DNA of 64,000 bases from Bryobacterales bacterium (GCA_963744175.1 CAVUSQ010000002.1:62178-126177), one strand, 5' to 3'. Numbered from the stretch's first letter, positions 44,788 through 62,581 are shown. Program-made: numbers and translations. The notes: a model not told the origin generated them from the letters alone.

Positions 44788-47364
44788 ATGTACTGGCGAG
44801 CAGAAAAGTCGGTTTCCTCGTTTTGGCGAATTGGCGCGATAGGGTTGACCGTCCTTGCCAGCCCAGGGTTCGGCCAAAGGGCACCTCTTTTCAAGAGCGA
44901 GATCCAGCCGGTACTCGAGAAGAATTGCGTCGCATGTCACGGCTCCCAACAAAAAATGGCCGGCCTCGATTTGAGCAGCTTCGCCGGAATGATGCAAGGC
45001 AGCACCAGCGGACCGGTGATTGCGCCTGGAAAACCCGAACGCAGCCTATTGTGGAAAATGATCGAAAACGATCAGATGCCGCAGGGCGGTAAACTCAGCG
45101 CCGCCGACAAGCAGTTGATCCAAGCCTACATCGCCCAAGGGCGTTTCCCTCTTCAGCCGACAGAATCCGCAGAGGAGATCCAGAAGCGAGAAGCCGCCAG
45201 GATCACTGCGGAAGATCGTAACTGGTGGTCCTTCAAGAAACCTGTAAAAGCGGTTCCGCCTGTCGTCGCTAATAAGGATCAAGCGCGTACGGCAATCGAT
45301 AATTTCGTCCTTGCCCGGTTGGAGAAGAAGGGCTGGAAGATGGAACCGGAAGCGGACCGGGTTACCCTGATCCGCCGCGCTTATTTCGACCTTACCGGTC
45401 TTACCCCCACGGTTGCCGAGGTCAAAGCTTTTGTTGAAGATAAATCCGACAACGCCTGGGAGAAGGTGGTCGATTATTTGCTCGCATCCCCACATTACGG
45501 AGAACAATGGGGCCGGCATTGGCTGGATGTGGCTGGTTATTCCGATTCGCGTGGCGACGCGGGCGATAGCGATCGGGAAGCGGTGTGGAAGTATCGAGAT
45601 TACGTAATCCATGCGTTCAATAACAACAAGCCTGTTAACCGGTTTTTGTTAGAGCAGATGGCTGGCGATCAACTGGTCAATTACAAGCCGGGAACGGTTC
45701 CCACGCCCGATCAGGTGGAACCTTTGATCGCGACCGGTTTCCTCCGCACCACGGCGGACATCACCGATAATCAAACGATTTACGAAGTCGATAAGTACTT
45801 CGATGCGCAGCAGAAGGCGATGGAGACCAGCCTCACGGCTGTGATGGGCGTCACCATTCAATGCGCGCGCTGCCACGATCACAAGTTCGACCCGTTTCTG
45901 CAAAAAGACTATTACAAGCTGATGTCGATCTACCAAGCCGTCTGGGATCCGGAAAACTGGCTGGCGGGCGACCTGAATTTCGGGCCATGGCCCAGCCGGA
46001 TGGTCCTGAACATGGACGAATCCTCCCGCGCGGCGTGGATCAAGGACGTGACCAGCAACGATTCCAAGGCGTTGAGGCATCTGGACGATCTTCTGGAAGC
46101 CACGTATCAGAGGTATCGCGCCGAATTGAAGACCGGCCGGGACATTTCCGACGAAGCGAAGCGCATGCAGATCCGCAAGGATATCGAAGCCGATCCGGAT
46201 CTGGAAGTGGACCGCAACGTTCTGAAGGATTTCATTACCGACCAGGAACTCGAGAAGCGATATCCGGAGCTGGCGCAGTGGAAAGACGATATCCAGGTGA
46301 AGAGGGCCAATCGCAAGAGCCCTTCGAAGATTCCGCCAAACTATATCGAAGCGGCGTGGGATGTTTCTAAGACCCCTTCGGCAACGTATGTGTTAGCGCG
46401 CGGGAATTATCTGGCGCCGGGCGCGGAAGTGCAGCCGGGCATTCCCCTGGTGCTGGATAGTCCGGAGCACGCGCTGCAGTTTCCGGATCCGAAGAAACAT
46501 CCGGAATGGAACGGCACGAACCGGCGTTTGATTCTGGCCAACTGGATGACCTCGTCCGACAATCCGCTGGTTCCGCGAGTGTTCGTGAACCGCGTCTGGC
46601 AGTGGCATTTTGGAGAAGGGATCGTCCGCTCGGTAGACGATTTCGGCAGCCAGGGGTCCAGGCCCACCAATCCCGAACTGCTGGACTATCTTGCGGTATC
46701 GTTTCAGGAGCACCATTGGGATCTGAAATGGCTGAACAAGGAAATCATGATGTCGCAGGTGTACCGGCAGGCTTCGGCGGAAGTTCCGCAGTACCTTGCC
46801 GCGGATCCTTCCGATAAACTGTTGTGGCGGAAGGCTCCTTTGCGCCTGGAAGCGGAGACCATACGGGATTCGATGTTGGAAGTGAGCGGTCTGCTCAGCA
46901 CTGAGATGTTCGGAAAGCAGGAGCCGATCAAGCGCGGCCCGGACGGGCAGTGGATGGAAGACGACAAGAAGGGCGCGGGCCAGACTCGCCGTAGTATTTA
47001 CCTGGCGCAGACACGTACCAGGTGGGTGAACTTCCTGCACGTGATGGATTGTCCGGACATGACTTCGGATCATCAGGACGAGCGGTTCCGGTCATCTCTA
47101 CCGACGCAGTCGCTGGCTCTCATGAACAGTCAACTGGTGATGCGGGCAAGCAAAGCCTTTACGGATAAAGTCCTGGAACAGACTGATAATCACCCCGAGG
47201 CGGCGGTGATGCTGGCGTTCGAGGAGATGTATAACCGGCCGCCGACGGCGCGGGAAGCGGAGCTTGCGAAAAAATCGATGACGGCGGAGAGCGATCCTAA
47301 AGAGGGCCTCCGGCTGTTCATCCAGGCCATGTTCGGAGCGAATAACTTTTTGTACAGTTTCTGA
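44788..47364 (+). CDS. PSD1-type protein: Planctomycete cytochrome c (PSCyt) + DUF1549 + DUF1553
   Basis: 858 aa. CVACHG haem-binding-like motif near the N-terminus. DUF1549-like RRAYFDLTGLTPTVAEVKAFVED...HYGEQWGRHWLDVAGYSDS. DUF1553-like NPLVPRVFVNRVWQWHFGEGIV. Confidence 0.9.
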   Translation: MYWRAEKSVSSFWRIGAIGLTVLASPGFGQRAPLFKSEIQPVLEKNCVACHGSQQKMAGLDLSSFAGMMQGSTSGPVIAPGKPERSLLWKMIENDQMPQGGKLSAADKQLIQAYIAQGRFPLQPTESAEEIQKREAARITAEDRNWWSFKKPVKAVPPVVANKDQARTAIDNFVLARLEKKGWKMEPEADRVTLIRRAYFDLTGLTPTVAEVKAFVEDKSDNAWEKVVDYLLASPHYGEQWGRHWLDVAGYSDSRGDAGDSDREAVWKYRDYVIHAFNNNKPVNRFLLEQMAGDQLVNYKPGTVPTPDQVEPLIATGFLRTTADITDNQTIYEVDKYFDAQQKAMETSLTAVMGVTIQCARCHDHKFDPFLQKDYYKLMSIYQAVWDPENWLAGDLNFGPWPSRMVLNMDESSRAAWIKDVTSNDSKALRHLDDLLEATYQRYRAELKTGRDISDEAKRMQIRKDIEADPDLEVDRNVLKDFITDQELEKRYPELAQWKDDIQVKRANRKSPSKIPPNYIEAAWDVSKTPSATYVLARGNYLAPGAEVQPGIPLVLDSPEHALQFPDPKKHPEWNGTNRRLILANWMTSSDNPLVPRVFVNRVWQWHFGEGIVRSVDDFGSQGSRPTNPELLDYLAVSFQEHHWDLKWLNKEIMMSQVYRQASAEVPQYLAADPSDKLLWRKAPLRLEAETIRDSMLEVSGLLSTEMFGKQEPIKRGPDGQWMEDDKKGAGQTRRSIYLAQTRTRWVNFLHVMDCPDMTSDHQDERFRSSLPTQSLALMNSQLVMRASKAFTDKVLEQTDNHPEAAVMLAFEEMYNRPPTAREAELAKKSMTAESDPKEGLRLFIQAMFGANNFLYSF

Positions 47365-47390
47365 CCCGGTTCGAAAATATAGGAGTCACG

Positions 47391-48818
47391 ATGGGATTTA
47401 TATCACGTAGACGGGCGCTGCAAAATGCGGCGGTGGGGTTCGGTGCGATGGCGGCGAACTCGATTTTCCAGTGGGACAAACTCTTTGCCGCGGAGTCGGC
47501 AGCGGCGAAAGACCGCGTCTACGACCTGAAGCCGAAGGCGCCGCATTTCCCGGCCAAGGCGAAGCGAGTCATCTTCATTTATATCGGCGGTGGACCGAGC
47601 ACGATCGATATGTACGATCCCAAGCCGACGCTCGTTAAATATGACGGGCAGCCCGCGCCGTTTGAGATCAAAGGCCGCGCGCTGAACGGTTCACAGCAGG
47701 TGATGGCGAGTCCCTGGAAATTCAAAGACTGCGGCCAAAGCGGGCGCCAGATCTCGGATCTGTTGCCGCACTTCCAGAAGGTAGTCGATAAGGTGACCTT
47801 CGTGCGGTCGATGACCACGGACCGCATCGACCACTCGACGGCCCAGTTCACATTCGTCACCGGACGCGGGTTCACTGGATTTCCGGCGATCGGCTCCTGG
47901 GTGAGCTATGCGCTCGGCACCCAGAATCAGAATCTGCCCGCTTACATCGCCCTCGGAGAAGGCGCGACGATCGGCGATCGCGCGCACTCCTCGGCGTGGC
48001 TCCCTCCCATCTTTAATGGCACCGGGATGCGCGCGAATCCGGCGGCGCCGATCTACGATATCAAGCGTCCGGACAGCATGAGCGTCGATCAGCAAAAGCG
48101 GCTGCTTAGCATGGTGGAGGACCTGGATCGCGAACAGAAGGCCCAATTCTATCCCCTGGATCAGGACCTGGAATCGCGCATCGCAAATTATGAACTAGCG
48201 GCCCGCATGCAGATGGAAGCCCTGAAAGTGGCGAATTTCGACGAAGAGAGCGAAGCCACCAAGAAACTTTACGGCATCGACGAGAAGGTAGCCGGACCGT
48301 TCAGCAAATTGTGCCTGATGGCGCGCCGCCTGGCTGAGAAAGACGTGCGCTTCATTCAGATTTATGGCGGAGGCGGCGGGAACTGGGATACTCACAACAA
48401 TATTGAAGGTCAGCTTCCCGGTCTGTGCCAGTATATCGATCAGGGCATGTCGGCGCTGCTCATCGATCTGGCCCAGCGCGGCATGCTGGAAGACACGCTG
48501 GTGGTCTGGTCGGGTGAATTCGGCCGTCTGCCCACCATCGAGGCGAAGAATTCTAAACCCGGCCGCGATCACAATCCTTATGGGTTCAGCATGTGGATGG
48601 CGGGCGCCGGAGTTAAGCCTGGATTCGATTACGGCCAGACAGACGACCTGGGATATGCGGCCGTAAAAGATTTCAAGTGCACACACAGCGACATCCATGC
48701 CACGGTGCAGCATTTGCTGGGACTCGATTTCAAGAAAAACACGTTTCCGTACGAGGGACGGGACGAGTCACTGGTAGGAGTGCTTCCTGCGCGCGTGATC
48801 ACGGAAATTTTGGCCTAA
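47391..48818 (+). CDS. DUF1501 (sulfatase-fold) protein, Tat signal
   Basis: 475 aa. SRRRALQNAAVGFGAMAA twin-arginine signal. KAKRVIFIYIGGGPSTIDMYDPKP is typical of DUF1501. It is the usual partner of the preceding PSD1 gene. Confidence 0.9.
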   Translation: MGFISRRRALQNAAVGFGAMAANSIFQWDKLFAAESAAAKDRVYDLKPKAPHFPAKAKRVIFIYIGGGPSTIDMYDPKPTLVKYDGQPAPFEIKGRALNGSQQVMASPWKFKDCGQSGRQISDLLPHFQKVVDKVTFVRSMTTDRIDHSTAQFTFVTGRGFTGFPAIGSWVSYALGTQNQNLPAYIALGEGATIGDRAHSSAWLPPIFNGTGMRANPAAPIYDIKRPDSMSVDQQKRLLSMVEDLDREQKAQFYPLDQDLESRIANYELAARMQMEALKVANFDEESEATKKLYGIDEKVAGPFSKLCLMARRLAEKDVRFIQIYGGGGGNWDTHNNIEGQLPGLCQYIDQGMSALLIDLAQRGMLEDTLVVWSGEFGRLPTIEAKNSKPGRDHNPYGFSMWMAGAGVKPGFDYGQTDDLGYAAVKDFKCTHSDIHATVQHLLGLDFKKNTFPYEGRDESLVGVLPARVITEILA

Positions 48819-48840
48819 CCTAAAGGAAACGGGCGGAACT

Positions 48841-49614
48841 ATGCTTTTACGCACCATCTCGACCGCATGCATTACGCTATGTTTTGCGCTGCTTCCTGGA
48901 CCGGCGCCGGCCGGCCCCCCGCAGCAAGCCGATCAGGATCGCGAGGCAAGAACGCGGGAATATGTAAAGGTTTTGGTGATTGAGGTCGATCAATGGACCA
49001 AGGATTTCCCTCGAGACTTTTATATGGCTGCAGCACGACCACCTGTCGACTCAAGTAAGTTGTCGGAAAGCGTCAAAGCCGGCGCGGAGCAGTTGGGCGA
49101 TACCGTCAAGCAGCTCTCTGCGCTGAGTAAGGCTCAGGATGTTCTCGCCAATGGCGAGTTTCGCAACGAGTTGAACAAAACTCTGGCGGCGGCAAAACAA
49201 GTGAATGAGGCCATGGGGAGCCAGAGATTTCCCGGCGTCCTCCAAAACAAGTGGGATCAAATCCGGACCGATTTGAACAGCCTGGCTCAGGTCTATAAGC
49301 TCGATACGCTTGCCTATCTGCCACCTCCGGCACCTGGGCGCGCCGGCCAGACAGCGGCAGCGGTTCCTGGCGGCGTCGTCGGGTATATCGTCGATCAGTC
49401 GTGCGCTCTTAAGGGCAAGGGAATGTGGACCAATGCCACCTGCATCGCGAGATGCATCCGGGACGGCGATAAGGCGGTGCTGGTAACCGAACAAGGCAAG
49501 ATTTATCAGATCGCGAATCCCGATAAAATCGATTCCGACGCTTATGGTCTGAAAGTGACGATCGTCGGCAAAACGGATTCGGATACCATTACGATCGCCA
49601 GCTTGACGATGTAG
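48841..49614 (+). CDS. Secreted protein: helical N-terminal domain + C-terminal 3-Cys module
   Basis: 257 aa with a signal peptide. The last ~80 aa, GYIVDQSCALKGKGMWTNATCIARCIRDGDKAVLVTEQGKIYQIANPDKIDSDAYGLKVTIVGKTDSDTITIASLTM*, are homologous to the whole mature part of 53978..54271. Confidence 0.7.
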   Translation: MLLRTISTACITLCFALLPGPAPAGPPQQADQDREARTREYVKVLVIEVDQWTKDFPRDFYMAAARPPVDSSKLSESVKAGAEQLGDTVKQLSALSKAQDVLANGEFRNELNKTLAAAKQVNEAMGSQRFPGVLQNKWDQIRTDLNSLAQVYKLDTLAYLPPPAPGRAGQTAAAVPGGVVGYIVDQSCALKGKGMWTNATCIARCIRDGDKAVLVTEQGKIYQIANPDKIDSDAYGLKVTIVGKTDSDTITIASLTM

Positions 49615-51692: not shown

Positions 51693-52940
51693 ATGTTGAC
51701 GCCCAGAGTAACGAACAACCGGAGCGGATCGCGGGAGTTCCAGAAGTTTGACGGCTTGATCCGTCAAGTGGCGGAAAGCGAGACCTTTCGTACGGCGCCG
51801 GTGATGCGCGCCTTGCTGGTCTATCTGTGGGAACATCAGGGGCAGTCGGTCAGCGAATACGCAATTGCGACCGAAGCGCTGGGACGCGCCCCTTCTTTCG
51901 ACCCTAAATCGGATTCCACCGTTCGGGTGCAAGTCGCGCGCCTCCGGGCGAAGCTGAAGGAGTTTTCAGAGGACGCGGGCGAATCCTTTCCGCTGCACCT
52001 GGCGGTGCCGCGGGGGGGACACGAATTACAGTGGGTGTATGATCCCCCTCAAAAATCCCTCGCCTCGAAATTCGACGGATTGCCTAAATCGTATCTCTGG
52101 GCAACGGGTTTGGCGGCGTTGTTTTTGCTCGCGGTCTGCGTTGTTCTAATGGTGGAAGTTCGTAGTTTGAAGGCGTCGCTGCCGGCGCCGGCGCAGATAC
52201 CGAGATTCTGGCAGTCCTTTCTGATGCCTGGCAAATCGGTTGAGGTGGTAGTTCCCAGCCCGCTGTATTTCGCGTGGCCTTCCCACGGAGTTTATGTAAG
52301 GGATTTCAAGGTCTCAGATTTCAGCCAATGGATGACGTCGCCATTTATAAAGGAGACCGCGAAAAAATGGGGTCCTCCGGAGTTGTCTCAACAGTACGTG
52401 GGGGCAATGGAAATGACGGCGGGCATTAACGTGCTGCAGTATCTCGAAAAAGCGGGACAGCCGGTCCGACTCGTAGAATCCCGGCGATTTCCAGCAGAAT
52501 CGTTCGCGGCCCAGAACACCGTCTTCCTGGGAATGCCGCGCACGGCCGGTTACCTGGATCAAATGCTGGCGAAGACTAACTTCTATATTGCCAGCGTGGA
52601 CCCGGACCTGATTAAAAGCCGGAATCCTGTACCGGGGGAGCCGGCGGAGTTCCGGGAGATCTCCTATTCCTCTGACCGGAGGATGGCTCCGGCGATTATC
52701 ATACTTTTGCCAGCGCGACCCGAACACACGCGCATGTTATTGCTTTTGGGCCGCCATCTTACCAGCATCACAACTATGCTGGTTACTCTTCAAGGGCTCA
52801 AACAGGTTGATGAGCAATGGGTGAAAGCGGGCTCACCGGATGCTTGGGAAATGGTGATCGAGGCAGAAATCTACCGCGACACGATTCTGAAATTTTCCAC
52901 GATGGCGTGTCGACCCATCTCAGCAACCTTCTGGAAATAA
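51693..52940 (+). CDS. Membrane-anchored winged-helix (CadC/OmpR-like) regulator with extracytoplasmic domain
   Basis: 415 aa. ALLVYLWEHQGQSVSEYAIATEALGR...DSTVRVQVARLRAKLKEF resembles a trans_reg_C wHTH. One TM segment (YLWATGLAALFLLAVCVVLMV), then a ~250-aa unknown domain. Confidence 0.65.
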   Translation: MLTPRVTNNRSGSREFQKFDGLIRQVAESETFRTAPVMRALLVYLWEHQGQSVSEYAIATEALGRAPSFDPKSDSTVRVQVARLRAKLKEFSEDAGESFPLHLAVPRGGHELQWVYDPPQKSLASKFDGLPKSYLWATGLAALFLLAVCVVLMVEVRSLKASLPAPAQIPRFWQSFLMPGKSVEVVVPSPLYFAWPSHGVYVRDFKVSDFSQWMTSPFIKETAKKWGPPELSQQYVGAMEMTAGINVLQYLEKAGQPVRLVESRRFPAESFAAQNTVFLGMPRTAGYLDQMLAKTNFYIASVDPDLIKSRNPVPGEPAEFREISYSSDRRMAPAIIILLPARPEHTRMLLLLGRHLTSITTMLVTLQGLKQVDEQWVKAGSPDAWEMVIEAEIYRDTILKFSTMACRPISATFWK

Positions 52941-53028
52941 ACCGTAACAATCGGTAACATACCTCTTGGCACTTCTGCTGGAAGGGAATTGCGTGTTGAG
53001 CTGACAGACAGTCCCTCGCGGAGCGTCC

Positions 53029-53958
53029 ATGATTTCTACGGTCACAAGCAGCACGGTTTTACTATCCGCAGTATTTCTGACAGCGACAGCGTCCGGGCAA
53101 ACCACGTCGAAGTGGCATACGCGGGATGTAACTCGCTTGAGCCAGGTGCAAATCTCGGACTATCTCAAACGAAGCGATGTCATATTTGTGGCGGTAGGCG
53201 CGACGGAATCGCAGGGCGCCGACGCCAGCGATCGTGAGTACATTGCGCCTCTTGGCTCGGCGGCGCAGATGGCCGAGGAAACCGATGCAGTATATATGCC
53301 GAACCTATGTTATTTCTATCCGGGTTCGACCATCACCTCTTCGGCGACCGTTTATATTTCCATTCCTTTGGGAGAGGCTTATCTCAAAGCGATCGCGCAC
53401 TCGCTGCTGCGCCAGGGATTTAAGACTCAGATTTGGGTGTGGCACGGGCATGGACCCTCGCCGCTGTACGTGGGTGCGATGGTGCGAGACTTTTTTGAAG
53501 AGACCCACGTGCCGATCCTCGCGATCGACGCGGCGCAAGCGGAACGCGCATACAAGGGGCCGAAGGATATGATTATGTATGGCAAGTATGCCTCCGTGGG
53601 GCACATCGAAGATCTGCCGCTTGCAAGCGAGGCGCCTGCCCGGCCGGCCCGCAAGGCAGCCTCCGCTGACGACCCGGGTTTAGCGACGCTCACCAAGATG
53701 GGGCTCGCGGGCAGTCTGGCGCTGGGTTATTGGTGGGCGGATCCCGAGGCTCACGGATCCGGGGGCGGTAGCGCGAAGCTGCCCTCTACAGTGGAAGAGC
53801 GTGCGGAATGGGCCAAAACGGGGATGCAGCAACTGGCTGCTATCGTAAAGACCATGGACCTGAAGACGGTGGTATCCGCGCTGCAGCAACATGCCAGGTT
53901 CACGGAAGAGAAAATTGTTCCGAAGTTCAAAACTCTGCTGCCCGAAACCGAAAAATGA
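53029..53958 (+). CDS. Creatininase-fold paralog 1 with Sec signal peptide
   Basis: 309 aa. Signal MISTVTSSTVLLSAVFLTATASGQ. IFVAVGATESQGADASDREY aligns with the creatininase ILPVGSxEQHGPHLPLxTD block (His replaced by Gln). RQGFKTQIWVWHGHGPS aligns with the NGHGGN block. Confidence 0.75.
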   Translation: MISTVTSSTVLLSAVFLTATASGQTTSKWHTRDVTRLSQVQISDYLKRSDVIFVAVGATESQGADASDREYIAPLGSAAQMAEETDAVYMPNLCYFYPGSTITSSATVYISIPLGEAYLKAIAHSLLRQGFKTQIWVWHGHGPSPLYVGAMVRDFFEETHVPILAIDAAQAERAYKGPKDMIMYGKYASVGHIEDLPLASEAPARPARKAASADDPGLATLTKMGLAGSLALGYWWADPEAHGSGGGSAKLPSTVEERAEWAKTGMQQLAAIVKTMDLKTVVSALQQHARFTEEKIVPKFKTLLPETEK

Positions 53959-53977
53959 TCCGATCAGGAGAGCGTAT

Positions 53978-54271
53978 ATGAATCGATGGATGTTGATGTT
54001 CACGCTTATTACAGGTATTGCCGCTGCGGCGGATTTGAGCGGCTACATTGTGGATCAGACGTGCGCGGGCAAGAAAGCGATGTGGGAAGATTCAGAATGC
54101 GTCGCCCGTTGCGTGAGGAGAGGCAGTGTAGTGGTGCTGGTGACCGATGACGGGGCGATCCACAAAATCGCGAACCAGGATAAAGTGAAGGCTGAATCCT
54201 ATGGCAAAAAGGTGACGGTCACGGGCAAGATCGAGGGTGACACCATTACCATTGAAGACTTGAAGATGTAG
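53978..54271 (+). CDS. Small secreted 3-Cys protein
   Basis: Start placed at ATG 53978 (AGGAGA SD): MNRWMLMFTLITGIAAAADLSGYIVDQTCAGKKAMWEDSECVARCVRRGSVVVLVTDDGAIHKIANQDKVKAESYGKKVTVTGKIEGDTITIEDLKM*. Confidence 0.7.
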   Translation: MNRWMLMFTLITGIAAAADLSGYIVDQTCAGKKAMWEDSECVARCVRRGSVVVLVTDDGAIHKIANQDKVKAESYGKKVTVTGKIEGDTITIEDLKM

Positions 54272-54275
54272 TTTG

Positions 54276-54989
54276 ATGCAGACGAATAAAGCGACCGCCG
54301 CGGCTGCCTCAGGATGCCTCTTTTTGTCTTTGGGGCTATGGATTGCGATGCGCGCTGGAGCGGAGCCACAGGAGACCGGATCCGAGACTTGGATCTTCGA
54401 TCGACTCGATCAGCTCGGCGGTCATGCCACCACTGTTCTGGGCCATCCGCACGTGATCGACTCGCCGGAAGGCAAGGCGGTCGAGTTTAACGGCCAAGAC
54501 GACGGCCTTCAGCTCGAAGTGCATCCGTTAGAGGGCGCCGCGACCTACACCTGGGAAGCAGTTTTCCGGCCCGATGGCGGCGATCCGGAGCAACGCTGGT
54601 TCCACCTCGAAGAAAATCCAGCAACCGGTTCCGACGCGGATAGCCGAATGCTTTTCGAGATTCGCGTGATCGGGGATCGCTGGTGTCTCGACGCCTTCAA
54701 TCGGTCGGGATCGGTGCAGAAGGCTCTGCTCGATCGCAAGAGTCTGCACACCCTGGGAGTCTGGCACCGTGTAGCCGCGGTTTATGATGGCGCGGAGTTC
54801 CGAAGCTACGTAGACGGCATTCTGGACGGCTCTGCGAAAATCTCTCTGACGCCGCAGGGCGCCGGACGAACGTCCATCGGCGTGCGCATCAACAAAGTGT
54901 ATTATTTCAAAGGCGCCATCCATCTGGCGCGTTTTACCCGTCGCGCGCTTTCGCCTTCGGAGTTTGTGAAATTGTCCGGCAATCCGTAA
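54276..54989 (+). CDS. Secreted LamG/concanavalin-A-like lectin-fold protein
   Basis: ~237 aa with signal-like AAAASGCLFLSLGLWIAMRAGA. ...GKAVEFNGQDDGLQLE...WHRVAAVYDGAEFRSYVDGILDG...FKGAIHLARFTRRALSPSEF is the Laminin_G_3-like pattern. Confidence 0.7.
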   Translation: MQTNKATAAAASGCLFLSLGLWIAMRAGAEPQETGSETWIFDRLDQLGGHATTVLGHPHVIDSPEGKAVEFNGQDDGLQLEVHPLEGAATYTWEAVFRPDGGDPEQRWFHLEENPATGSDADSRMLFEIRVIGDRWCLDAFNRSGSVQKALLDRKSLHTLGVWHRVAAVYDGAEFRSYVDGILDGSAKISLTPQGAGRTSIGVRINKVYYFKGAIHLARFTRRALSPSEFVKLSGNP

Positions 54990-55006
54990 TTGAAGGAGCG
55001 GTTTAA

Positions 55007-55930
55007 ATGTCCCACAAGATTCTATTCATGCTAAGTCTAAGCTGCTGCATGCTGACAACAGCTCCGGCATGGTCCCAGGTGCGGAAATTACACACGCGCG
55101 ATCTGACCCGGCTGAGTCAGGTTCAGGTCGCCGATCATTTGAAGCACAGCGACATCATATTTATACCTTTGGGAGCGGTGGAAACCAACGGCATCATGCC
55201 CAGCGATCGCGATTATGTCTCGCCGCTGGCGTATGCGATGGCCATGGCCGACGATGTCGATGGCTTGTACATGCCCGGTCTGGTATGGTCCTACCCGGGC
55301 ACTACATTGATTGCCCAAGCCACCGTAAATATGTCGCCGACGCAAGGGCTGAATTTTTTGAGGGCGGTAGCGGAGTCTCTTTTGCGACAGGGCTTTCGCC
55401 GGCAGGTATATATTTCATCGGGACAAGGCCCCGCGCCGCTGACCGCCGGAACGTTGGTTCGGGAATTTTATGACACGGAGCATGTTCCACTCCTCTATAT
55501 CGACATGGACGCCTATCTGCCGAAATTGAAACTGCCGCCGACAGCCCGGGACAAGGCGTTGTACGGGGCGCACTACATCACCGGGAGAATCATCGATCTG
55601 CCGCTCCAAGGCGAATACGGCGAAGCGGAATCGCAGGCGGCGGGTCCCGTGCCTGAGAATACCGGGTTGGCAGGGCTGACGAAACTTGGTTATTCAGGCA
55701 GCTTATCGCTGGGATCGTGGCAGCCCGACGTCATGGCCCACGGCAGGCCTCCAGTGTTGGCGTCCTCAGCCGCTCAGCGCGAGGAGTGGGGAAAGGAAGG
55801 GGAGGCTCAGATTCGTGCGATCGTCAAGCTGATGAAGATGCAGGAAGCCATGGACGACTTAAAGCAACACGATAAATTCACTAACGAGATTCTGATTCCG
55901 AAATATGGGAAGTTGGTCCCCAGTCGCTAG
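55007..55930 (+). CDS. Creatininase-fold paralog 2 with Sec signal peptide
   Basis: 307 aa. Signal MSHKILFMLSLSCCMLTTAPAWSQ. IFIPLGAVETNGIMPSDRDY (His replaced by Asn). RQGFRRQVYISSGQGPA (second His position is Gln). Confidence 0.75.
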   Translation: MSHKILFMLSLSCCMLTTAPAWSQVRKLHTRDLTRLSQVQVADHLKHSDIIFIPLGAVETNGIMPSDRDYVSPLAYAMAMADDVDGLYMPGLVWSYPGTTLIAQATVNMSPTQGLNFLRAVAESLLRQGFRRQVYISSGQGPAPLTAGTLVREFYDTEHVPLLYIDMDAYLPKLKLPPTARDKALYGAHYITGRIIDLPLQGEYGEAESQAAGPVPENTGLAGLTKLGYSGSLSLGSWQPDVMAHGRPPVLASSAAQREEWGKEGEAQIRAIVKLMKMQEAMDDLKQHDKFTNEILIPKYGKLVPSR

Positions 55931-55989
55931 TCTGCAGGTCCGTAAGTATATGGGAACTTTAGTAATTGGAGACTAGTATGCTCTTCCAC

Positions 55990-56047
55990 CGATTCTGTTA
56001 GCGGAAATGCTCGCGTCTGTCCGCATGTTTTACGCATGGCGGTTCAG
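55990..56047 (+). repeat. Copy C of a hairpin-forming intergenic repeat
   Basis: CGATTCTGTTAGCGGAAATGCTCGCGTCTGTCCGCATGTTTTACGCATGGCGGTTCAG, near-identical to 32287-32343. Confidence 0.6.
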
Positions 56048-56085
56048 TAGCCACGTTGAAAGCATGCGGGTAGACGTAAATCTAG

Positions 56086-57207
56086 ATGGATCAATCCACA
56101 TTCGATGCGCTCGAGCAGACTTCCCGGTGCGAAGGGCCCGAGGCGGTGCTCGATCTGGTGATCGAGACGGCCTTGCGGGAGAAGAACTATCGGTTGCTGT
56201 TCGGCGCGCGGATCATGCAGGTTCGCCACCGTTTAGGTCTGAAGCTCATCGATACCGATCCGGTCCCCCAGGTCACCAGCGAACAGCGTCCTATCTATGA
56301 GAAAGCCCTGACCGATGCCGCGCGAGAGGCAGGCGGCCTGCTGCTCGACAACGGCGATATCGCTGGGGCGTGGCCGTATTTTAAGGCGATTGACGCTCCG
56401 GCCGCGGTCGCCGCTGCCATAGAAAATGTAACCAGCGGAGACGGACTTGAGCGTATCATCCAGATTGCGTACCAAGAGGGCGTGAACCGCAGAAAAGGTT
56501 TCGAGTTGATCCTGCAGCACCATGGGATTTGCAGCGCCATCACCTGGTTCGGATCCAATCCTGACTCTGAAAGCCGCGAGAGGTGTCTCGATCTGCTGGT
56601 CCGGACGCTGTACATGGAAGTGGCTGCCGCTCTCAAAGAAACCATCGCCTCCTCGGAAGGCGCCGCGCCTCAAACGAACAGCTTGCCGGAATTGATCGCG
56701 GGACGCGCTTGGCTATTTGAAGGAACCAGCAGCTATGTCGATAGCACGCATTTAACGGCGGTCGTTCGATTTTCCCCCGAGCTTGAGGATCGGGAAGCGC
56801 TACGCATGGCTTTGGAGCTGGCCGAGTATGGCCAACATCTGAATCCTATGTTTCATTTTCGCGGCGATCCGCCATTCGAGGCCACCTATCTGGATCACGC
56901 GTTCTACTTGCGAGCTCTCCTGGGGATAGACGTCGACGAGGCCATCGCGCATTTCCGCCGGAAAATCCTTGGGATCGGCGATACGATTCATGCCGAGGCC
57001 CTCATTGAGCTACTGGTGCGGTTGGGCCGGTATGAGGATGCGATACAGGCATCCCTTGCATACCTTCCCGACGCCGGCGGGAGCTGTACGCCCGTTCAGC
57101 AGTTGTGCCAGATGGCAGGAAATTACACCCAGCTGCGGAGCATCGCGCGAGAAAGCGGCGATTTGTTGGGATTTGCGGCCGGGGTCATTCAAGGAGGAGA
57201 TAAATAA
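56086..57207 (+). CDS. Cytoplasmic all-helical hypothetical protein
   Basis: 373 aa with no signal peptide or TM segment. MDQSTFDALEQTSRCEGPEAVLDLVIETALREKNYRLLFGARIMQ... No family recognised. Confidence 0.6.
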   Translation: MDQSTFDALEQTSRCEGPEAVLDLVIETALREKNYRLLFGARIMQVRHRLGLKLIDTDPVPQVTSEQRPIYEKALTDAAREAGGLLLDNGDIAGAWPYFKAIDAPAAVAAAIENVTSGDGLERIIQIAYQEGVNRRKGFELILQHHGICSAITWFGSNPDSESRERCLDLLVRTLYMEVAAALKETIASSEGAAPQTNSLPELIAGRAWLFEGTSSYVDSTHLTAVVRFSPELEDREALRMALELAEYGQHLNPMFHFRGDPPFEATYLDHAFYLRALLGIDVDEAIAHFRRKILGIGDTIHAEALIELLVRLGRYEDAIQASLAYLPDAGGSCTPVQQLCQMAGNYTQLRSIARESGDLLGFAAGVIQGGDK

Positions 57208-57211
57208 TAAG

Positions 57212-58036
57212 ATGAGTTCCATGCACTCCCGCCGCCGTTTCGGAGTCCTAACCGCCGCCGCGCTGACTTCGCTGCGCGCCCAGAATAAGGCTCCCATCCC
57301 GATTGGCCTGCAACAGACCGCGGTCAACAAAAATATCCAGCAGGACCTTCCAGGAACGCTGCAGGCCGTCGCGAAAATGGGCTACCAGATAATTGAATTC
57401 TCCGCGGGCACGTTCATGAAGTGGAGTCCCGCGACAGCCCATGACGTCCGAAAGATATTGGATGACGTGAATCTTCGCTGCCGCTCCACGCACAACGAAA
57501 TCGCTTCGTTTTCGAGCGACGGTCTATCCCGCGCCATCGAACTGAATCATATTATCGGATCGGATACCTTGGTCTCCGTTCGCGGACCCGTTCCGCCGAC
57601 CCTCGATGCATGGAAGCGCTTTAGCGAACAGTTGAGTCAGGCTGCCGATCGTATTCTTGCTGCGCATATGACCCTGGGATTTCACAATCATGAAATTGAA
57701 TTCAAGCCCGTTGACGGAACTCGCCCCATAGATATTCTGGCCGCCAACAAAGACATCACCTCGTTCCATTTGAACCTGGGTCTGTGTCTGAAAGGTGGCG
57801 GCGATCCCATTGCCTTCCTGAACCAGTGTCCTGGACGCGTTCAGGCGATCCTGTGTCAGGATTTTGAAGGCAAAGCGCGCTGGAAGGAAACGTTCGCGGC
57901 GGCCGAGAACGGGAGCGGATTGGAATTCTATTTAATCCAAAGAACCGACGGCCTCTCACTGGTGCCGCGCGAAGGCACCGATTTATTGGAGTTCGCGCGG
58001 CAGGACCTCGAATATTTTCGCCGCCTGCATTCCTGA
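57212..58036 (+). CDS. Xylose-isomerase-like TIM-barrel protein, Tat-like signal
   Basis: Start placed at ATG 57212 (AAGGAGGAGA SD; MSSMHSRRRFGVLTAAALTSLRA). ...MGYQIIEFSAG...HNHEIEF... The track extension to 56969 overlaps the previous gene and is rejected. Confidence 0.85.
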   Translation: MSSMHSRRRFGVLTAAALTSLRAQNKAPIPIGLQQTAVNKNIQQDLPGTLQAVAKMGYQIIEFSAGTFMKWSPATAHDVRKILDDVNLRCRSTHNEIASFSSDGLSRAIELNHIIGSDTLVSVRGPVPPTLDAWKRFSEQLSQAADRILAAHMTLGFHNHEIEFKPVDGTRPIDILAANKDITSFHLNLGLCLKGGGDPIAFLNQCPGRVQAILCQDFEGKARWKETFAAAENGSGLEFYLIQRTDGLSLVPREGTDLLEFARQDLEYFRRLHS

Positions 58037-58041
58037 CCCAT

Positions 58042-59052
58042 CTAAAAATATGGAGCGTGCGACATCGGCGATGGCAGGCCGTCGGCGGTATCCAATTCCA
58101 TGAATTCGACGCGAGTGCCGTCGGGATCGAAGAAATTTCCCTGCCATTTGTGGTTCACGCCCACATGCGCCTCATGCTGGCGATCGTAGTCCTTGAACGC
58201 GGGCCGGGCCTCTACCGCCGCGACCGTCTTCGCCATCGTGTCCAACGTTGCGAGAGCGATATGACCGGATCCGCGACCCCCGGTCGGAGGCGGGTCGGGC
58301 CGAGTCCGCATAAGGCTCCATTCGATATAGTCGTCGCTTTCCGGCAGCTTCAAATTCGACAGGTTGGCAAACAGCGGGCCCTCTCTCGGCGCTGAAGGGG
58401 CTGCTCCCGGAGCTTTCATGGTGGGATCGGCGCGCCAAAATTCGCGTACTCCGAACCCATCCAGATAAAACTTCGTCGTTTCCGGTTTCGAAATACTGAA
58501 TCCGGTGTGAAGGATACGGCGGGAAAGGCGCTGGTCCGAAAGATCCTTACCATAGCTCAGCACGCTGAGACTCTCCGGCGTATATTGCATCACCTCGATC
58601 GCATCGCCGTCAGGGTCCGATATCTGGAAGGCCAGATCGTGAGTGGGCGTTTTCGCAATTTTGCCGGGTACGGAATAGCCCAAGGATTTCAGATAGAGCC
58701 GCATCGCCTCCGCGTCGTCCGTCTCGACAGCATAACCGGCCCAACGCATTTCCGTGTTGGAGGACTCCGGCATCACGACAATGTACTGCCGGTTATTCAC
58801 TTTGAAGTAGACACTGGAAACCTGGTCCTGAGGAAGGCCGCTTTTTACCACCGCAGTCTGATTCCGAAGGACTGTAAAAACCTCCTGAAATCCGAGCAGA
58901 TCTCCGTAGAAATGGCGCGATGCGTTCAGATCGTGCGATCGCACCACAATCTTGGAGACGCCGAGCAGCCGGGGCCGCTTCGCATCTTCCGCGTTTGCGG
59001 TAACCGTCATGAGTGTTCCGGTCAGTATGGTGGCGATGATAAATTTGGTCAT
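58042..59052 (-). CDS. Secreted two-domain VOC (glyoxalase/bleomycin-resistance/dioxygenase) family protein
   Basis: Start placed at ATG 59052 (MTKFIIATILTGTLMTVTANA signal). VVRSHDLNASRHFYGDLLGFQEVF and HTGFSISKPETTKFYLDGFGVREFW are VOC beta-alpha-beta-beta-beta starts. An alternative start lies at 59067. Confidence 0.75.
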   Translation of the reverse strand: MTKFIIATILTGTLMTVTANAEDAKRPRLLGVSKIVVRSHDLNASRHFYGDLLGFQEVFTVLRNQTAVVKSGLPQDQVSSVYFKVNNRQYIVVMPESSNTEMRWAGYAVETDDAEAMRLYLKSLGYSVPGKIAKTPTHDLAFQISDPDGDAIEVMQYTPESLSVLSYGKDLSDQRLSRRILHTGFSISKPETTKFYLDGFGVREFWRADPTMKAPGAAPSAPREGPLFANLSNLKLPESDDYIEWSLMRTRPDPPPTGGRGSGHIALATLDTMAKTVAAVEARPAFKDYDRQHEAHVGVNHKWQGNFFDPDGTRVEFMELDTADGLPSPMSHAPYF

Positions 59053-59069
59053 TGTTGCGACGTCCATTA

Positions 59070-59104
59070 TATATCGCTTCAGATCGCGGGCAGGCAGCGA
59101 TATA
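59070..59104. promoter_or_regulatory. Perfect 9-bp inverted repeat in a divergent promoter region (candidate operator)
   Basis: TATATCGCT (59070-59078), 17 nt, AGCGATATA (59096-59104). It lies between the VOC gene start and the creatininase-fold paralog 3 start. Confidence 0.3.
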
Positions 59105-59131
59105 CTGGCGCCTACTACAGGAGGTACCACT

Positions 59132-60052
59132 TTGAAACTGACACAGATGGGAGTGCTTTGCGCACTCCTTGCACCTTGGGCGCCCGGCCAGACTGCGGCC
59201 ATGCGCACTCGCTATCTTCCCAGCCTGACGAATCCGGAAGTCGAACAGTATCTGAAACGGAACGATATTATCTTTATCCCGGTTGGCACGGTGGAATCGT
59301 TCGGAACCATGCCCTCGGACATGGAGTATCGGATGGCGGAAGCGTATGCAGCCAAGATGGCGGAGGAAGTCGATGGCTTGGTGCTGCCTCACGTCCTGTA
59401 CTTTTATCCCGGCGTTACGGTTACCGGGGCGGCTTCGGTCTACATCCCGCAGGATATCGGTCTCAGTTATTTGAAAGCGTTGGCGCACTCCTTGCTCCGC
59501 CAGGGATTTCGCCGCCAGATCTATTTGTCCGCGCATGGACCTTCAGACCAGTATGTGAGCGGCATGGTGAGGCAGTTTTTCGAAGAGACGAAGGATCCGG
59601 TTTTGTATATCCACTTGCCGCTTCTCAATCGCGCGCAGGCGCCCGCCGGGGCCGGAAACACGTTTCGCTCGATTGGTTATGGCGCCTATTATCTACTCGG
59701 CAGAATGAACGATATTCCACTCGATCTCGATCCGCCGAAACCCGACATGCCTCCTCTGCCGAGGCCTCCGGCGTCGCTCGCAATCCTCTCTCCTCTCGCT
59801 CCGGAGAGCAGCGCGGTGGGTAGCTATGAACCGGATCCGGAACATAACGGTGGCAGACCCCTTCAGCCGGTTCATATGACAGCGGAGGAGCGCGAGAGGC
59901 TCGGCAAAGAAGGTGCTGCGTTAATTGAGCGCAACATCCGAGCGGTCAATATCAAAGCGGTTGTCCAGGCGCTACGCGATGAGGATAAGTATGTTCACGA
60001 CATCATTCTGCCGCGCTTCAAAGATATCCTGCCCAAGGATCAGCCGCAATAA
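59132..60052 (+). CDS. Creatininase-fold paralog 3 with short signal peptide
   Basis: Start placed at TTG 59132 (GGAGG SD 8 nt upstream; LKLTQMGVLCALLAPWAPGQTAA) or ATG 59147. IFIPVGTVESFGTMPSDMEY (His replaced by Phe). RQGFRRQIYLSAHGPS. The track extension to 58952 overlaps the VOC gene. Confidence 0.75.
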   Translation: MKLTQMGVLCALLAPWAPGQTAAMRTRYLPSLTNPEVEQYLKRNDIIFIPVGTVESFGTMPSDMEYRMAEAYAAKMAEEVDGLVLPHVLYFYPGVTVTGAASVYIPQDIGLSYLKALAHSLLRQGFRRQIYLSAHGPSDQYVSGMVRQFFEETKDPVLYIHLPLLNRAQAPAGAGNTFRSIGYGAYYLLGRMNDIPLDLDPPKPDMPPLPRPPASLAILSPLAPESSAVGSYEPDPEHNGGRPLQPVHMTAEERERLGKEGAALIERNIRAVNIKAVVQALRDEDKYVHDIILPRFKDILPKDQPQ

Positions 60053-60127
60053 GTCTGCTGACTTGACCGCATTCCGGTGCTGGCAACTCCCCACTCGCAG
60101 GCCGCGCACAGTGACCCGATTTATAAG

Positions 60128-62581
60128 CTACTCGCACCTGAGTGCCGCCACAGGATCGAGGCGCATAGCGCGGCGTGCGGGAACGTAACACGCGACAAGC
60201 GCGACCACCATCAATATCACGGCAACGGCGGCGTACGTCAGCGGGTCGTGCGCAGTCACACCGAAAAGCTGGTTGGCCATAAGGCGGGTCAATCCGAATG
60301 CCGCGGCGAGGCCGGCAGCCACGCCAACGAGCGCCATTTTAGCGCCTTCGCTAAGCACCATACGCATCACATCGCTGCGCTGCGCGCCGAGGGCGATTCG
60401 CACGCCGATTTCGTGCGTGCGCTGGCCGACCAAATAAGAAACCACGCCGTAAATTCCGACGCACGCCAGCACCAGCGCGAGGCCCGCGAACACCCCCAGA
60501 AGAATCATCGAGAGTCTGCGCGGAGCAAGAGCGCCAGCCAGAACCTGGTCCATCGTCTGCACGCCATAGATGACCTCGCGAGAGTCGAGTTCCTGAACGC
60601 TTCGGCGAACATCCTTCATAATCGACGCGGGATCGCCCTCCGTGCGAACCACAACCGCGGCGCCGCCCGCGGCGAGAGCCATCAGTTTATCTGGAATTTG
60701 CATGAACGGGTAGAAAAACTGCGCTTCGATCGACGCTTGGGCGTCACCGCCCGGCCCCCATTGCTTAATATGCCCCACCACTCCGACGATTTCCGCCTGC
60801 ACGTCGAACTGCATCAGGTGGACCCGCTTCCCGATGGGATTCTCGCCCGGAAAGTACGTGCGCGCGAAAACGTCGTCAATGTCCATCACCAGCGGAGTGT
60901 TCTCATTATCCTGCTCGGTGACGAAGCGGCCGCGTTCCAGGGTGATTCCCATGGCCTGCTGGAAATCCGCTTCGACTAGATAAAACATCGCTCCGGGCAT
61001 CTCGTTTTCGCTCGCCGGCTTCGGCCGTCCTTCGATCCAGAACGGCACTGCGGAGTCATGAATCATCGGGCGCGAGCCCAGCGTGACAGAGACGGCCCGC
61101 ACCCCGGGAATCGATCGAATCTTATCGTGGAATTGACGCAGCCTGGCGCGCGTTTCGGCTGTTGTGGTCGCCGAGGATGACGGCATCGACACGCTGAAGG
61201 TAATTGCCCCACTCGGCTGGTATCCGGGATTCACGCGCCACAGCGCTGCAAGACTGCGAAGCATCAGGCCCGCGCCGATCAGAAGAACAAGGGCCATCGC
61301 GATTTCGACTGCCACAAAGGCGCCTTGCAGTCGATGACGTGCGCCGCTGGAGCCGCGGCCGCTCTCCCTCAGAACCTCCTGCAAATCTACGCGTGAACTT
61401 TTGAGGGCCGGGGAAAGTCCGAAAATAATCGCGGCAAATAGAGATAGCGCCATCGTGAACAGCAGCACGCGTCCATCCAAGATTGCTCCGGCGGAGACTT
61501 CTCCGGCGCGCGGCAGCGTCCCGGGCAAAACCTGGAGCGCCGCTCTCATGGCGCCAAAGGCGATCAGCAATCCCAGCATCCCTCCCAGCGCGGCGAGAAG
61601 AACATTTTCCGTGAGAAGCTGGCGGACGATGCGCGTGTGGCCTGCGCCCAGGGCCGCGCGAACGGCGAACTCACGCGAGCGCCGGGTCGCGCGCGCCAGC
61701 AGAAGATTCGCCACGTTCGCGCAAGCAATCAACAGCAGGAAACCGACGGCGGCGAGAAGCACTAGCAGGAAGGGTTGAACGTTGCCGACGATGTCCTCCT
61801 TCATCGGGACCAGCGTAATGCCAACGCTTTTATTGGAATCCGGAAAGGCGGCGGCAAGATCGCGCGAAACGACGTCCATATCGGCTTTCGCCCGCTGGAG
61901 ACTGACGCCGGGTTTCAGCCGGCCGACGACGCGCGCGCTCACAGAGATGCGGCGATCGCGAAACGAGGCATCGTTCCACTGGCCAATGGGCGTGTAGACG
62001 TCGCGATCCTGGCCGTAGAAACTGAAGCTGGAAGGAATCACGCCCACGATCGTATAAGATGTTCCGTTGAGAACCAGCGATTTGCCGGTGACGTCCGGTG
62101 AGGCGCCGAATGCCCGTGTCCAGAAGCCGCCGCCTAGAATCACCACCGGCGCCGCCCCCACCTCATCGTCCTCAGGCCGGAACGTGCGACCGAGAACGGG
62201 ATTTATGCCGAGGGTGGAAAAGAAGTCCGCGGAAATCATATAACCGCTCAGGCGCTGAGCTTCCGCTGTGCCGCTCACGTTGTAATCTTTGTTGCGGTAG
62301 ATGGCCATCGACGCGAACGTCTGCGTTTCGCGGCGCCAATCCAAAAAATTGAGGTAGACGGGCGGGCTTTTGTCGTCTCCTGGCCTTTTCTCGGAAACGG
62401 CCACCAGTTGTTCCGAATGAGGATATGGCAACGGATTGAGCAGGACGCCGTCGACGATGGAGAAAAGCGCCGTGTTCGCCCCAATCCCGATCGCCAGAGT
62501 GAGAATGGCAATGACGGCGAAGCCCGGCGACTTAAGGAGTATCCGAACGGCGTACGGCAAATCTTGTGACAGGACCGTCAT
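60128..62581 (-). CDS. ADOP-family (MacB_PCD + duplicated FtsX) ABC permease, intact, no adjacent PadR
   Basis: 817 aa. It starts directly at DLPYAVRILLKSPGFAVIAILTLAIGIGANTALF, without the charged cytoplasmic leader of the other two copies. FtsX motifs LIACANVANLLLARA, REFAVRAALGAGHTRI and QRTHEIGVRIALGAQRSDV. C-terminus RLDPVAALRCE. Confidence 0.9.
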   Translation of the reverse strand: MTVLSQDLPYAVRILLKSPGFAVIAILTLAIGIGANTALFSIVDGVLLNPLPYPHSEQLVAVSEKRPGDDKSPPVYLNFLDWRRETQTFASMAIYRNKDYNVSGTAEAQRLSGYMISADFFSTLGINPVLGRTFRPEDDEVGAAPVVILGGGFWTRAFGASPDVTGKSLVLNGTSYTIVGVIPSSFSFYGQDRDVYTPIGQWNDASFRDRRISVSARVVGRLKPGVSLQRAKADMDVVSRDLAAAFPDSNKSVGITLVPMKEDIVGNVQPFLLVLLAAVGFLLLIACANVANLLLARATRRSREFAVRAALGAGHTRIVRQLLTENVLLAALGGMLGLLIAFGAMRAALQVLPGTLPRAGEVSAGAILDGRVLLFTMALSLFAAIIFGLSPALKSSRVDLQEVLRESGRGSSGARHRLQGAFVAVEIAMALVLLIGAGLMLRSLAALWRVNPGYQPSGAITFSVSMPSSSATTTAETRARLRQFHDKIRSIPGVRAVSVTLGSRPMIHDSAVPFWIEGRPKPASENEMPGAMFYLVEADFQQAMGITLERGRFVTEQDNENTPLVMDIDDVFARTYFPGENPIGKRVHLMQFDVQAEIVGVVGHIKQWGPGGDAQASIEAQFFYPFMQIPDKLMALAAGGAAVVVRTEGDPASIMKDVRRSVQELDSREVIYGVQTMDQVLAGALAPRRLSMILLGVFAGLALVLACVGIYGVVSYLVGQRTHEIGVRIALGAQRSDVMRMVLSEGAKMALVGVAAGLAAAFGLTRLMANQLFGVTAHDPLTYAAVAVILMVVALVACYVPARRAMRLDPVAALRCE

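Follow-up and report, generated by a model that had tools for sequence, protein, structure and literature searches.

Three genes, P1, P2 and P3, lie close together in a stretch of 64,000 nucleotides (nt) from Bryobacterales bacterium, a soil acidobacterium (GCA_963744175.1, CAVUSQ010000002.1:62178-126177); this whole stretch is referred to here as the window, and all coordinates are counted in it unless a related locus is named. An earlier note made from the sequence had proposed that these open reading frames (ORFs) encode exported paralogs of the creatininase fold in which several metal-binding residues are substituted. The three genes are the following:

53029..53958, plus strand: P1, creatininase-fold paralog of 309 amino acids (aa), predicted to be exported
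55007..55930, plus strand: P2, creatininase-fold paralog of 307 aa, predicted to be exported
59132..60052, plus strand: P3, creatininase-fold paralog of 306 aa with a TTG start, predicted to be exported

The ATG of P1 at 53029 is preceded by GGAG at a distance of 6 nt, the ATG of P2 at 55007 has AGGAG on its 5' side, and the TTG of P3 at 59132 has AGGAGG 7 nt upstream; on account of these Shine-Dalgarno-like sites, the coordinates listed, which are those of the earlier note, represent the most plausible gene models, and the longer ORF at 58952 is unlikely to be the real gene. The products can be aligned with each other over their full length with 39-43% identity, so that their description as clear paralogs stands, and a six-frame hmmsearch of the window detected these three family members and no others. 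Most of the shared motifs quoted previously are present, i.e. DVIF/DIIF..G..E, SLLRQGF(K/R).Q, the C-terminal ..P(K/R)(F/Y), ESQG/ETNG/ESFG...SD and WHGHGPS/SSGQGPA/SAHGPS; the block LTRLSQVQ(I/V), in contrast, is common to P1 and P2, and P3 has LPSLTNPEV instead. P2 is the most widespread and the most conserved of the three paralogs. Proteins of these types are publicly annotated as 'creatininase family protein' or 'creatinine amidohydrolase', and therefore the assignment to the family is not new. Several long ORFs of 247-438 aa (58507-59823 and 60077-60979 on the plus strand, 58793-59536 on the minus strand) overlap real genes, partly antisense and partly in another frame; they resemble the spurious ORFs of DNA with 57% G+C, and equivalent antisense ORFs overlie the family genes in related loci.

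The alignment of the N-terminal region with the creatininase family, which had been made by eye, was confirmed with Pfam: PF02633 (Creatininase) matches P1, P2 and P3 with 32.9, 40.8 and 61.6 bits, in the three cases above the gathering score of 31.3, and the match is confined to profile positions 3-130 of 238. A family profile of 46 sequences (A2) matches the creatininases 1J2T and 3A6J with E=3e-17, and hhalign to 1J2T gives a probability of 98% over the N-terminal half only. The AlphaFold2 (AF2) model of P2, built on A2, has a predicted local distance difference test score (pLDDT) of 90.7 and a predicted template modelling score (pTM) of 0.87. When this model was compared with the PDB using Foldseek, 26 significant matches were obtained, all of them to structures of the creatininase family (1Q3K, 1J2T, 3A6x, 3NO4, 3LUB), with E values from 1e-8 to 8e-7 and template modelling (TM) scores of 0.48-0.62, and every match outside this family had E>0.1. 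Neither hhalign nor Foldseek thus assigns a different fold, and judged by the predicted model the creatininase-fold assignment is sound. The modest TM scores, together with a C-terminal half that cannot be aligned, indicate a strongly diverged subfamily.

According to one explanation, P1-P3 would be ordinary cytoplasmic orthologs of creatininase, IolN or MftE, their leaders being the product of wrongly placed starts and their ligand differences the product of alignment errors. The public labels agree with this, and the model of IolN (NF041098) is the top NCBIfam match of P1 and P3. However, the scores of this model for P1, P2 and P3 are 27.1, 22.5 and 48.9 bits, obtained on the N-terminal half only and against a cut-off of 245 (other members of the subfamily score 21-51 bits); TIGR04448 (creatinine amidohydrolase, EC 3.5.2.10) gives 18.3, 31.1 and 37.9 bits with an equivalog cut-off of 235, TIGR03964 (MftE) matches P3 alone with 19.6 bits and a cut-off of 172, and the ArfB model does not match any protein of the window. 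For the trio and ten other members of the subfamily, the creatininase, IolN and MftE models yield 18-55 bits, the cut-offs being 172-245. Because the scores of the trio (18-49 bits) fall far below the equivalog cut-offs, P1-P3 are none of the characterised enzymes, and orthology with creatininase, IolN or MftE was rejected. The trio belongs to a distinct, uncharacterised Creatininase subfamily with a C-terminal half of its own that ends in two long helices.

In the creatininase of P. putida, metal 1 is bound by Glu34, Asp45 and His120, and metal 2 by His36, Asp45 and Glu183, while Glu122 and His178 are catalytic. The sequence and numbering of 1J2T were checked, and the names of the PDB mutants E122Q, W154F and W174F agree with them. 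From the profile alignments (A2, hhalign) and a residue map, the following equivalences were obtained:

Glu34 equivalent: E60 in P1, E59 in P2, E55 in P3
His36 position: Q62 in P1, N61 in P2, F57 in P3
Asp of the 'SD' motif: D68 in P1, D67 in P2, D63 in P3
Asp45 equivalent: E70 in P1, D69 in P2, E65 in P3
His120 position: H141 in P1, Q140 in P2, H135 in P3
Glu122 position: P143 in P1, P142 in P2, P137 in P3, and Pro across the subfamily
Conserved C-terminal His: H242 in P1, H245 in P2, H238 in P3 (shifted by one in P3)

The full ligand set Glu34/His36/Asp45/His120/Glu183 is found in none of the three proteins, which retain the equivalents of Glu34 and Asp45. As had been proposed, the first His ligand is replaced by Gln in P1, Asn in P2 and Phe in P3, and P1 and P3 keep the His of the NGHGGN block (His120), for which P2 has Gln. 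The Glu and Asp ligands are also kept, as the earlier note stated, but the Asp that it named, that of the 'SD' motif, is not the one aligned with Asp45; most likely the ligand is the acidic residue two positions further on, both acidic positions being conserved. In none of the paralogs is there a His 10 or fewer residues away from the His36 position, nor is there one near Q140 of P2, hence the substitutions are real and do not reflect canonical histidines at shifted positions; this, and the Pro that replaces Glu122 across the subfamily, speaks against ordinary orthologs with misaligned ligands. The conserved C-terminal His belongs to a D..(A/E)HG motif, similar to the DIEHGG of creatininase, and would correspond to His178. 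The residue that precedes it is D/E/Q in most members with His36 and A/G in most members without it, a loose correlation only. The 'EER' glutamates that follow this His were considered as ligands and rejected, given that they are not conserved in the canonical Firmicutes members. The P1 orthologs have a clade-specific additional histidine, His139, in the conserved WVWHGHGP.

The N-termini of the three proteins resemble signal peptides, as the earlier note had indicated:

53029..53097, plus strand: predicted Sec signal peptide of P1, MISTVTSSTVLLSAVFLTATASG, followed by Q
55007..55075, plus strand: predicted Sec signal peptide of P2, MSHKILFMLSLSCCMLTTAPAWS, followed by Q
59132..59188, plus strand: predicted Sec signal peptide of P3, MKLTQMGVLCALLAPWAPG, followed by Q, the weakest of the three

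These leaders were called heuristically, from hydrophobicity and small residues at -3/-1, and their status as signal peptides is a prediction. They are 19-23 aa long, stand ahead of the conserved domain, reach a Kyte-Doolittle maximum of 1.9-2.4 over 10-11 aa, and end in ASG, AWS and APG, each followed by Q (general form (A/S/G)-x-(G/S/A), then Q), with the conserved (H/R)TR only a few residues further on. The n-region of P1 has no basic residue and the h-region of P3 is the weakest; the P1 ortholog of the related locus L054 has a textbook leader (MFSTIKFRTPLCALFLTTLAAA, followed by Q), and the P3 orthologs have clear leaders. A leader is present in 114 of 119 P2 orthologs, whereas it was found in one of 119 Firmicutes homologs, 117 of which begin directly at the conserved MRTR. 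The same leader architecture is shared by 43 representative clusters of the subfamily and by the locus-derived orthologs. A twin-arginine motif is lacking in the leaders of the trio, which points to the Sec route, and P1-P3 are probably Sec-exported, periplasmic proteins. The identification of P2 as a lipoprotein was rejected; it does have a Cys in the h-region, but this residue is not conserved and a lipobox is missing. The idea of an exported branch with divergent ligands describes the trio well, but does not hold for all the exported members, some of which carry the full canonical set.

Wrongly placed starts were also weighed against the gene models of related loci. The P1 ortholog of L054 (6990-7811 in that locus) has a public gene model that is cut to 273 aa and has no leader, as would be expected for a cytoplasmic enzyme. 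Nevertheless, this short version loses the conserved HTRDVTRLSQ along with the signal peptide, and an in-frame ATG located upstream gives a normal leader. In addition, Shine-Dalgarno sites precede the long starts of P1-P3, and over 100 orthologs have kept a leader, which the Firmicutes homologs that start at MRTR lack. The neighbouring TIM barrels described below are weakly similar to IolE and IolO, as an IolN relationship would predict; however, neither a mycofactocin radical-SAM gene nor a Gfo/Idh/MocA dehydrogenase gene is among the listed neighbours of P1-P3. Taking this together with the bit scores, the interpretation of P1-P3 as ordinary cytoplasmic orthologs is already largely refuted, and we consider it extremely improbable. 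Start mis-calls such as that of L054 would mask the exported nature of the clade in the databases.

The altered residues are shared by the orthologs of each paralog. For P2, the set E-N-D-D-Q..H is invariant in 120 clusters (76-100% identity) and is also found in 17 of 19 genome loci. The two most divergent P2-like loci (L008 and L022), and also protein P0124, retain His at position 120, and therefore the loss of His120 in P2 came later. In the genome loci the P1 orthologs always have Gln at the His36 position and the P3 orthologs have Phe or Met; all 119 Firmicutes homologs are canonical at the site residues. The ratio of nonsynonymous to synonymous substitution rates (dN/dS) was computed against L054, which is a close relative with the same gene order (dS 0.54-0.70), and was 0.016 for P1, 0.045 for P2 and 0.050 for P3, equal to or below the values of all the neighbouring genes. 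Among P2 orthologs, 47% of the mature columns are at least 99% invariant, and the site loops GAVETNGI.PSDRDYV, SYPGTT, QGPAPLT and PDVM.HG form unbroken invariant blocks. The low dN/dS and the invariant loops of P2 indicate that the pocket is maintained, and the altered sites of the trio look repurposed rather than decaying. Of the two roles that the earlier note suggested, a new activity or non-catalytic binding, either may apply, since what the data show is strong constraint on the site.

A search with a profile built from the three paralogs gave 659 clusters (50% identity) at a threshold of E<=1e-3, of which 97 reached E<=1e-30. Substitutions at the His36 position are seen in 25 of the 43 representative clusters that bear a leader versus 8 of the 67 that are leaderless. 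In a crude neighbour-joining (NJ) tree without support values the exported members are roughly monophyletic, the canonical exported proteins P0148 and P0163 are basal, and the derived group has the order (P3,(P1,(P0124,P2))). The genome loci come chiefly from Bryobacterales and Terriglobia, and also from Opitutaceae and Gemmatimonadota, with Clostridia at 29-34% identity. The Firmicutes members are leaderless and have the full set Glu, His, Glu/Asp and His plus a C-terminal Asp-His dyad. Their genes are found in two types of operons; the first comprises an AraC regulator, an MFS_2 glycoside symporter and the homolog, with or without a type-B carboxylesterase, and has GH31, GH127, GH3 or GH1 genes nearby, and the second comprises a LacI regulator, a sugar ABC transporter, Amidohydro_2 and GH31. 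The Firmicutes loci L043-L052, e.g. that of Eisenbergiella porci (L046, 6567-9742), have small operons of the first type, often with the type-B carboxylesterase. It is possible that the Firmicutes members represent an uncharacterised carbohydrate-linked hydrolase of gut bacteria.

Exported members occur in tandem pairs in other Acidobacteriota and in one Gemmatimonadota metagenome-assembled genome (MAG) (L023, L024, L025, L026, L029 and L031). The first copy of these pairs has all the canonical site residues; the second, which carries a Pro-rich segment after the leader, is degenerate (Q-H-D-E-N-x-G), with Glu34 changed to Gln, His120 to Asn and the C-terminal His to Gly. In loci of the Acidobacteriaceae type such pairs are surrounded by esterase genes. 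In L025 the pair (9946-10921 and 10781-11864) is part of an island of six carboxylic-ester hydrolases, where Abhydrolase_3, GDSL, a PF00756 esterase, PfkB, two COesterases and a tannase/feruloyl esterase are encoded. Two exported proteins, P0246 (652 aa) and P0265 (647 aa), are fusions of a degenerate domain devoid of the Glu34/His36 equivalents with a canonical one (FEMHGPHG...TD, HGP/HSP); as Rosetta-stone proteins they hint at a pairing of degenerate with catalytic protomers.

These pairs and fusions bear on the idea that P1, P2 and P3 are subunits of a single periplasmic hetero-oligomer, in which the degenerate protomers, P2 in particular, would act as structural, regulatory or substrate-binding pseudo-subunits beside a catalytic protomer. 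Creatininases crystallise as hexamers, with 6 chains per PDB entry, P2 is the most conserved paralog despite having the most altered site, and the genes of the trio, which remain clustered across genomes, make up a single operon in L001 and L002. On the other hand, none of the three paralogs has the full canonical set, so that a catalytic partner is not evident among them; many P2 orthologs occur without P1 or P3 within 10 kb, and the clustering would be equally expected from tandem duplication followed by subfunctionalisation. We regard such a hetero-oligomer of the trio as rather unlikely.

The genes that surround P1-P3 are:

44788-47364, plus strand: PSCyt1-PSCyt2-PSD1 (DUF1549/DUF1553) protein with a cytochrome c domain
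47391-48818, plus strand: DUF1501 protein with a Tat-like RR leader
48841-49614, plus strand: exported protein of 257 aa with a DUF5818-like C-terminus
49620-50465 and 50483-51364, minus strand: two xylose-isomerase-like TIM barrels with Tat leaders, divergent from the regulator gene
51693..52940, plus strand: ToxR/CadC-like regulator with an N-terminal Trans_reg_C winged helix and no receiver domain
53978..54271, plus strand: small exported DUF5818-like protein of 97 aa, between P1 and the LamG gene
54273..54989, plus strand: exported LamG/concanavalin-A-like protein, between P1 and P2, a position conserved in related loci
56086..57207, plus strand: all-alpha, TPR-like solenoid protein of 373 aa without a leader
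57212..58036, plus strand: xylose-isomerase-like TIM barrel with a Tat leader (SRRRFG)
58042..59067, minus strand: exported glyoxalase/VOC-family protein, divergent from P3

Across related loci the conserved order is the ToxR-like regulator, P1, LamG, P2, the all-alpha protein, in some cases the xylose-isomerase (XI)-like TIM barrel, and P3. In L001 and L002 all three paralogs are in one co-directional cluster, and from this conserved clustering it follows that the triplication predates the divergence of these lineages. The all-alpha protein is encoded downstream of P2 and upstream of P3, as a conserved neighbour of both across Bryobacterales; its 604 homologs are all labelled 'hypothetical', it has no Pfam or NCBIfam family, and its AF2 model (pLDDT 89.7) gives in Foldseek generic TPR-like matches only (TM <=0.33), and therefore no functional lead. 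The small DUF5818-like gene is found at the same position in L054 and is absent from it in L001; its product and the C-terminal domain of the protein encoded at 48841-49614, about 4 kb upstream, are paralogous, and both weakly DUF5818-like proteins share YIVDQ.CA.KG..MW....C..RC.R.G. The three XI-like proteins, which carry Tat leaders and are presumably periplasmic, resemble IolE, IolO and hydroxypyruvate isomerase weakly (21-28 bits; 21-23 bits for IolE/IolO, the cut-offs being 290-300). The P2 locus is linked to the PSCyt-PSD1/DUF1501 set (44788..49614) in about 14 related genomes; the PSCyt-PSD1/DUF1501 pair is widespread and has no assigned function. A promoter/terminator scan of 51300-60300 gave no more sites than expected from shuffled sequence, one promoter-like site being located 5' of P3 (59078-59106), and an Rfam scan of the whole window gave no matches. 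Further upstream, on the minus strand, the stretches 28852-32142, 34035-34826, 36759-37949, 37981-41292 and 41399-44592 are in a region that encodes two TonB-dependent-receptor-like outer-membrane proteins (CarboxypepD_reg and OMP_b-brl_4), a dihaem cytochrome c and a molybdopterin oxidoreductase, and also an FG-GAP/ASPIC protein beside a TPR protein, a pair that recurs by creatininase-like genes in L053.

The regulator encoded at 51693..52940 crosses the membrane with a single helix (residues 136-154), and its periplasmic domain, of about 260 aa, has no annotation. A second Trans_reg_C regulator without a receiver domain, fused to TPR repeats, is encoded at 27051-28403 on the plus strand. In 11 related loci the membrane regulator directly adjoins the orthologs of P1 or P2, and it is this adjacency alone that suggests that P2, and perhaps P1, could bind a ligand without catalysis and serve as a co-sensor for the regulator, as ToxS or TcpH do. 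The change of both P2 histidines to amides, invariant across orthologs, and the invariant pocket loops would suit a binding protein. Nevertheless, a regulator located beside its target genes is the default expectation and does not call for a sensor role, P2 occurs without the regulator in about one third of the loci, and E59, D69, H245 and the SYPGTT loop, which are typical elements of a catalytic site, are all retained in P2. We therefore consider a co-sensor role improbable.

The explanation that we favour, with moderate confidence, is that P1-P3 form an anciently duplicated, Sec-exported creatininase-fold trio with remodelled metal sites, encoded in a conserved, co-transcribed periplasmic module. 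The ancestor would have been a metal-dependent hydrolase that acted on an ester, a lactone or an amide group in a compound derived from sugars or plants. In the exported acidobacterial clade His36, which belongs to the second metal site, would have been replaced (by Gln in P1, Asn in P2, Phe or Met in P3) and the second site lost, and P2 would afterwards have lost the His120 equivalent as well, to Gln. P1 and P3 may then be mononuclear hydrolases at most, through two Glu, one His and the conserved C-terminal His. The all-oxygen set of P2 (Glu, Asn, Asp, Asp and Gln) would constitute a repurposed pocket that could hold a hard metal (Ca/Mg), bind the substrate directly, or belong to a non-catalytic partner subunit. 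The three proteins would act in the periplasm as part of a co-transcribed module that comprises the ToxR-like regulator, P1, LamG, P2, the helical protein, in some cases the TIM barrel, and P3, and this module would lie within an island whose other genes encode exported XI-like TIM barrels, a VOC protein and the DUF1501/PSCyt-PSD1 pair.

Several points weigh against this explanation. The C-terminal half of P1-P3, including the Glu183 region, could not be aligned to creatininase by hmmsearch or hhalign, and the NJ tree is crude. The assignment of export is itself drawn from a heuristic applied to the leaders. Gln and Asn are able to ligate metals, which weakens the case for a mononuclear site, and His139 might restore a second metal site in P1. 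No characterised member of the subfamily was found in the searchable literature. Carboxylesterase, GDSL and tannase genes, partners of the wider subfamily, were searched for in the window and not found; as these esterase and glycosidase partners are absent from the window, the carbohydrate/ester hypothesis transfers only weakly to P1-P3.

A more speculative proposal, which we regard as rather unlikely, takes the trio and the canonical/degenerate pairs and fusions together as a hitherto unrecognised periplasmic hetero-oligomeric machine of the creatininase fold, whose altered-site pseudo-subunits (with the all-oxygen set in P2) would bind the substrate, hold a hard metal, or signal to the ToxR-like membrane regulator. 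If this were true, the creatininase fold would have come into use outside the cytoplasm, in a new chemistry or a sensing role directed at plant- or sugar-derived compounds, and if the pairing of canonical and degenerate copies reflects heteromers, these would be a bacterial periplasmic example of pseudoenzyme subunits.

The result stands at the level of annotation, and divergent paralogs of enzyme families are common. Nonetheless, the exported clade, the fixed loss of histidines and the ancient syntenic triplication appear to be unreported in the searchable literature, as do the canonical/degenerate pairs and fusions and the association of the wider subfamily with carbohydrate and esterase genes; no link of creatininase-family proteins to export, to Acidobacteria or to carbohydrate loci was found there. 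The subfamily is sizeable (about 660 clusters) and uncharacterised, with cytoplasmic members common in sugar/esterase operons of gut Firmicutes and exported ones common in soil Acidobacteriota, and could include a new class of carbohydrate- or ester-active hydrolases. The stepwise, fixed loss of metal-site histidines under strong purifying selection makes it a target for enzyme discovery, and a natural series in which a binuclear site would have been reshaped, or converted to binding, once the proteins were exported.

To our knowledge, the characterised enzymes of the creatininase fold (creatininase, MftE, ArfB and IolN) are all cytoplasmic and have a His-containing metal centre. The trio shares its fold with the creatininase of P. 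putida (1J2T/1Q3K/3A6x; Foldseek E ~1e-8, TM 0.5-0.6) and can be aligned with it in the N-terminal half, with the equivalents of Glu34 and Asp45 in the three proteins and that of His120 in P1 and P3. It differs from this enzyme in having Gln, Asn or Phe for His36, Gln for His120 in P2 and Pro for Glu122; in being about 50 residues longer, with an unalignable C-terminal half that ends in two long helices; and in its predicted signal peptides, creatininase being, as far as we know, cytoplasmic. Two further members of Pfam PF02633, the mycofactocin peptidase MftE and the archaeal formamide hydrolase ArfB, hydrolyse amides in a metal-dependent manner. MftE has been described as a creatininase homologue (PMC10885120). 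In contrast with both, the trio is predicted to be exported; its MftE scores do not exceed 20 bits, it has no match to ArfB, and its annotated neighbours do not include a radical-SAM, mycofactocin or riboflavin/F420 gene. The 'putative creatinine amidohydrolases' of Bacteroides fragilis (3LUB) and Nostoc punctiforme (3NO4) have the same fold (TM 0.52-0.62), with a sequence match that covers the N-terminal half only. IolN, the 3-dehydro-scyllo-inosose hydrolase of Thermotoga maritima, is a creatininase-fold enzyme that acts on a sugar-derived (cyclitol) substrate and is encoded together with the XI-like TIM barrel IolO. The trio differs from it in its predicted export, in the loss of His36 and in a match of 22-49 bits limited to the N-terminal 140 residues, and neither a Gfo/Idh/MocA or inositol dehydrogenase gene nor a kinase gene is present among its annotated neighbours. 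As to the likeness, the IolN model, whose length of 307 is close to theirs, is the top NCBIfam match of P1 and P3, and XI-like TIM barrels with weak matches to IolE/IolO are encoded near the trio as well.

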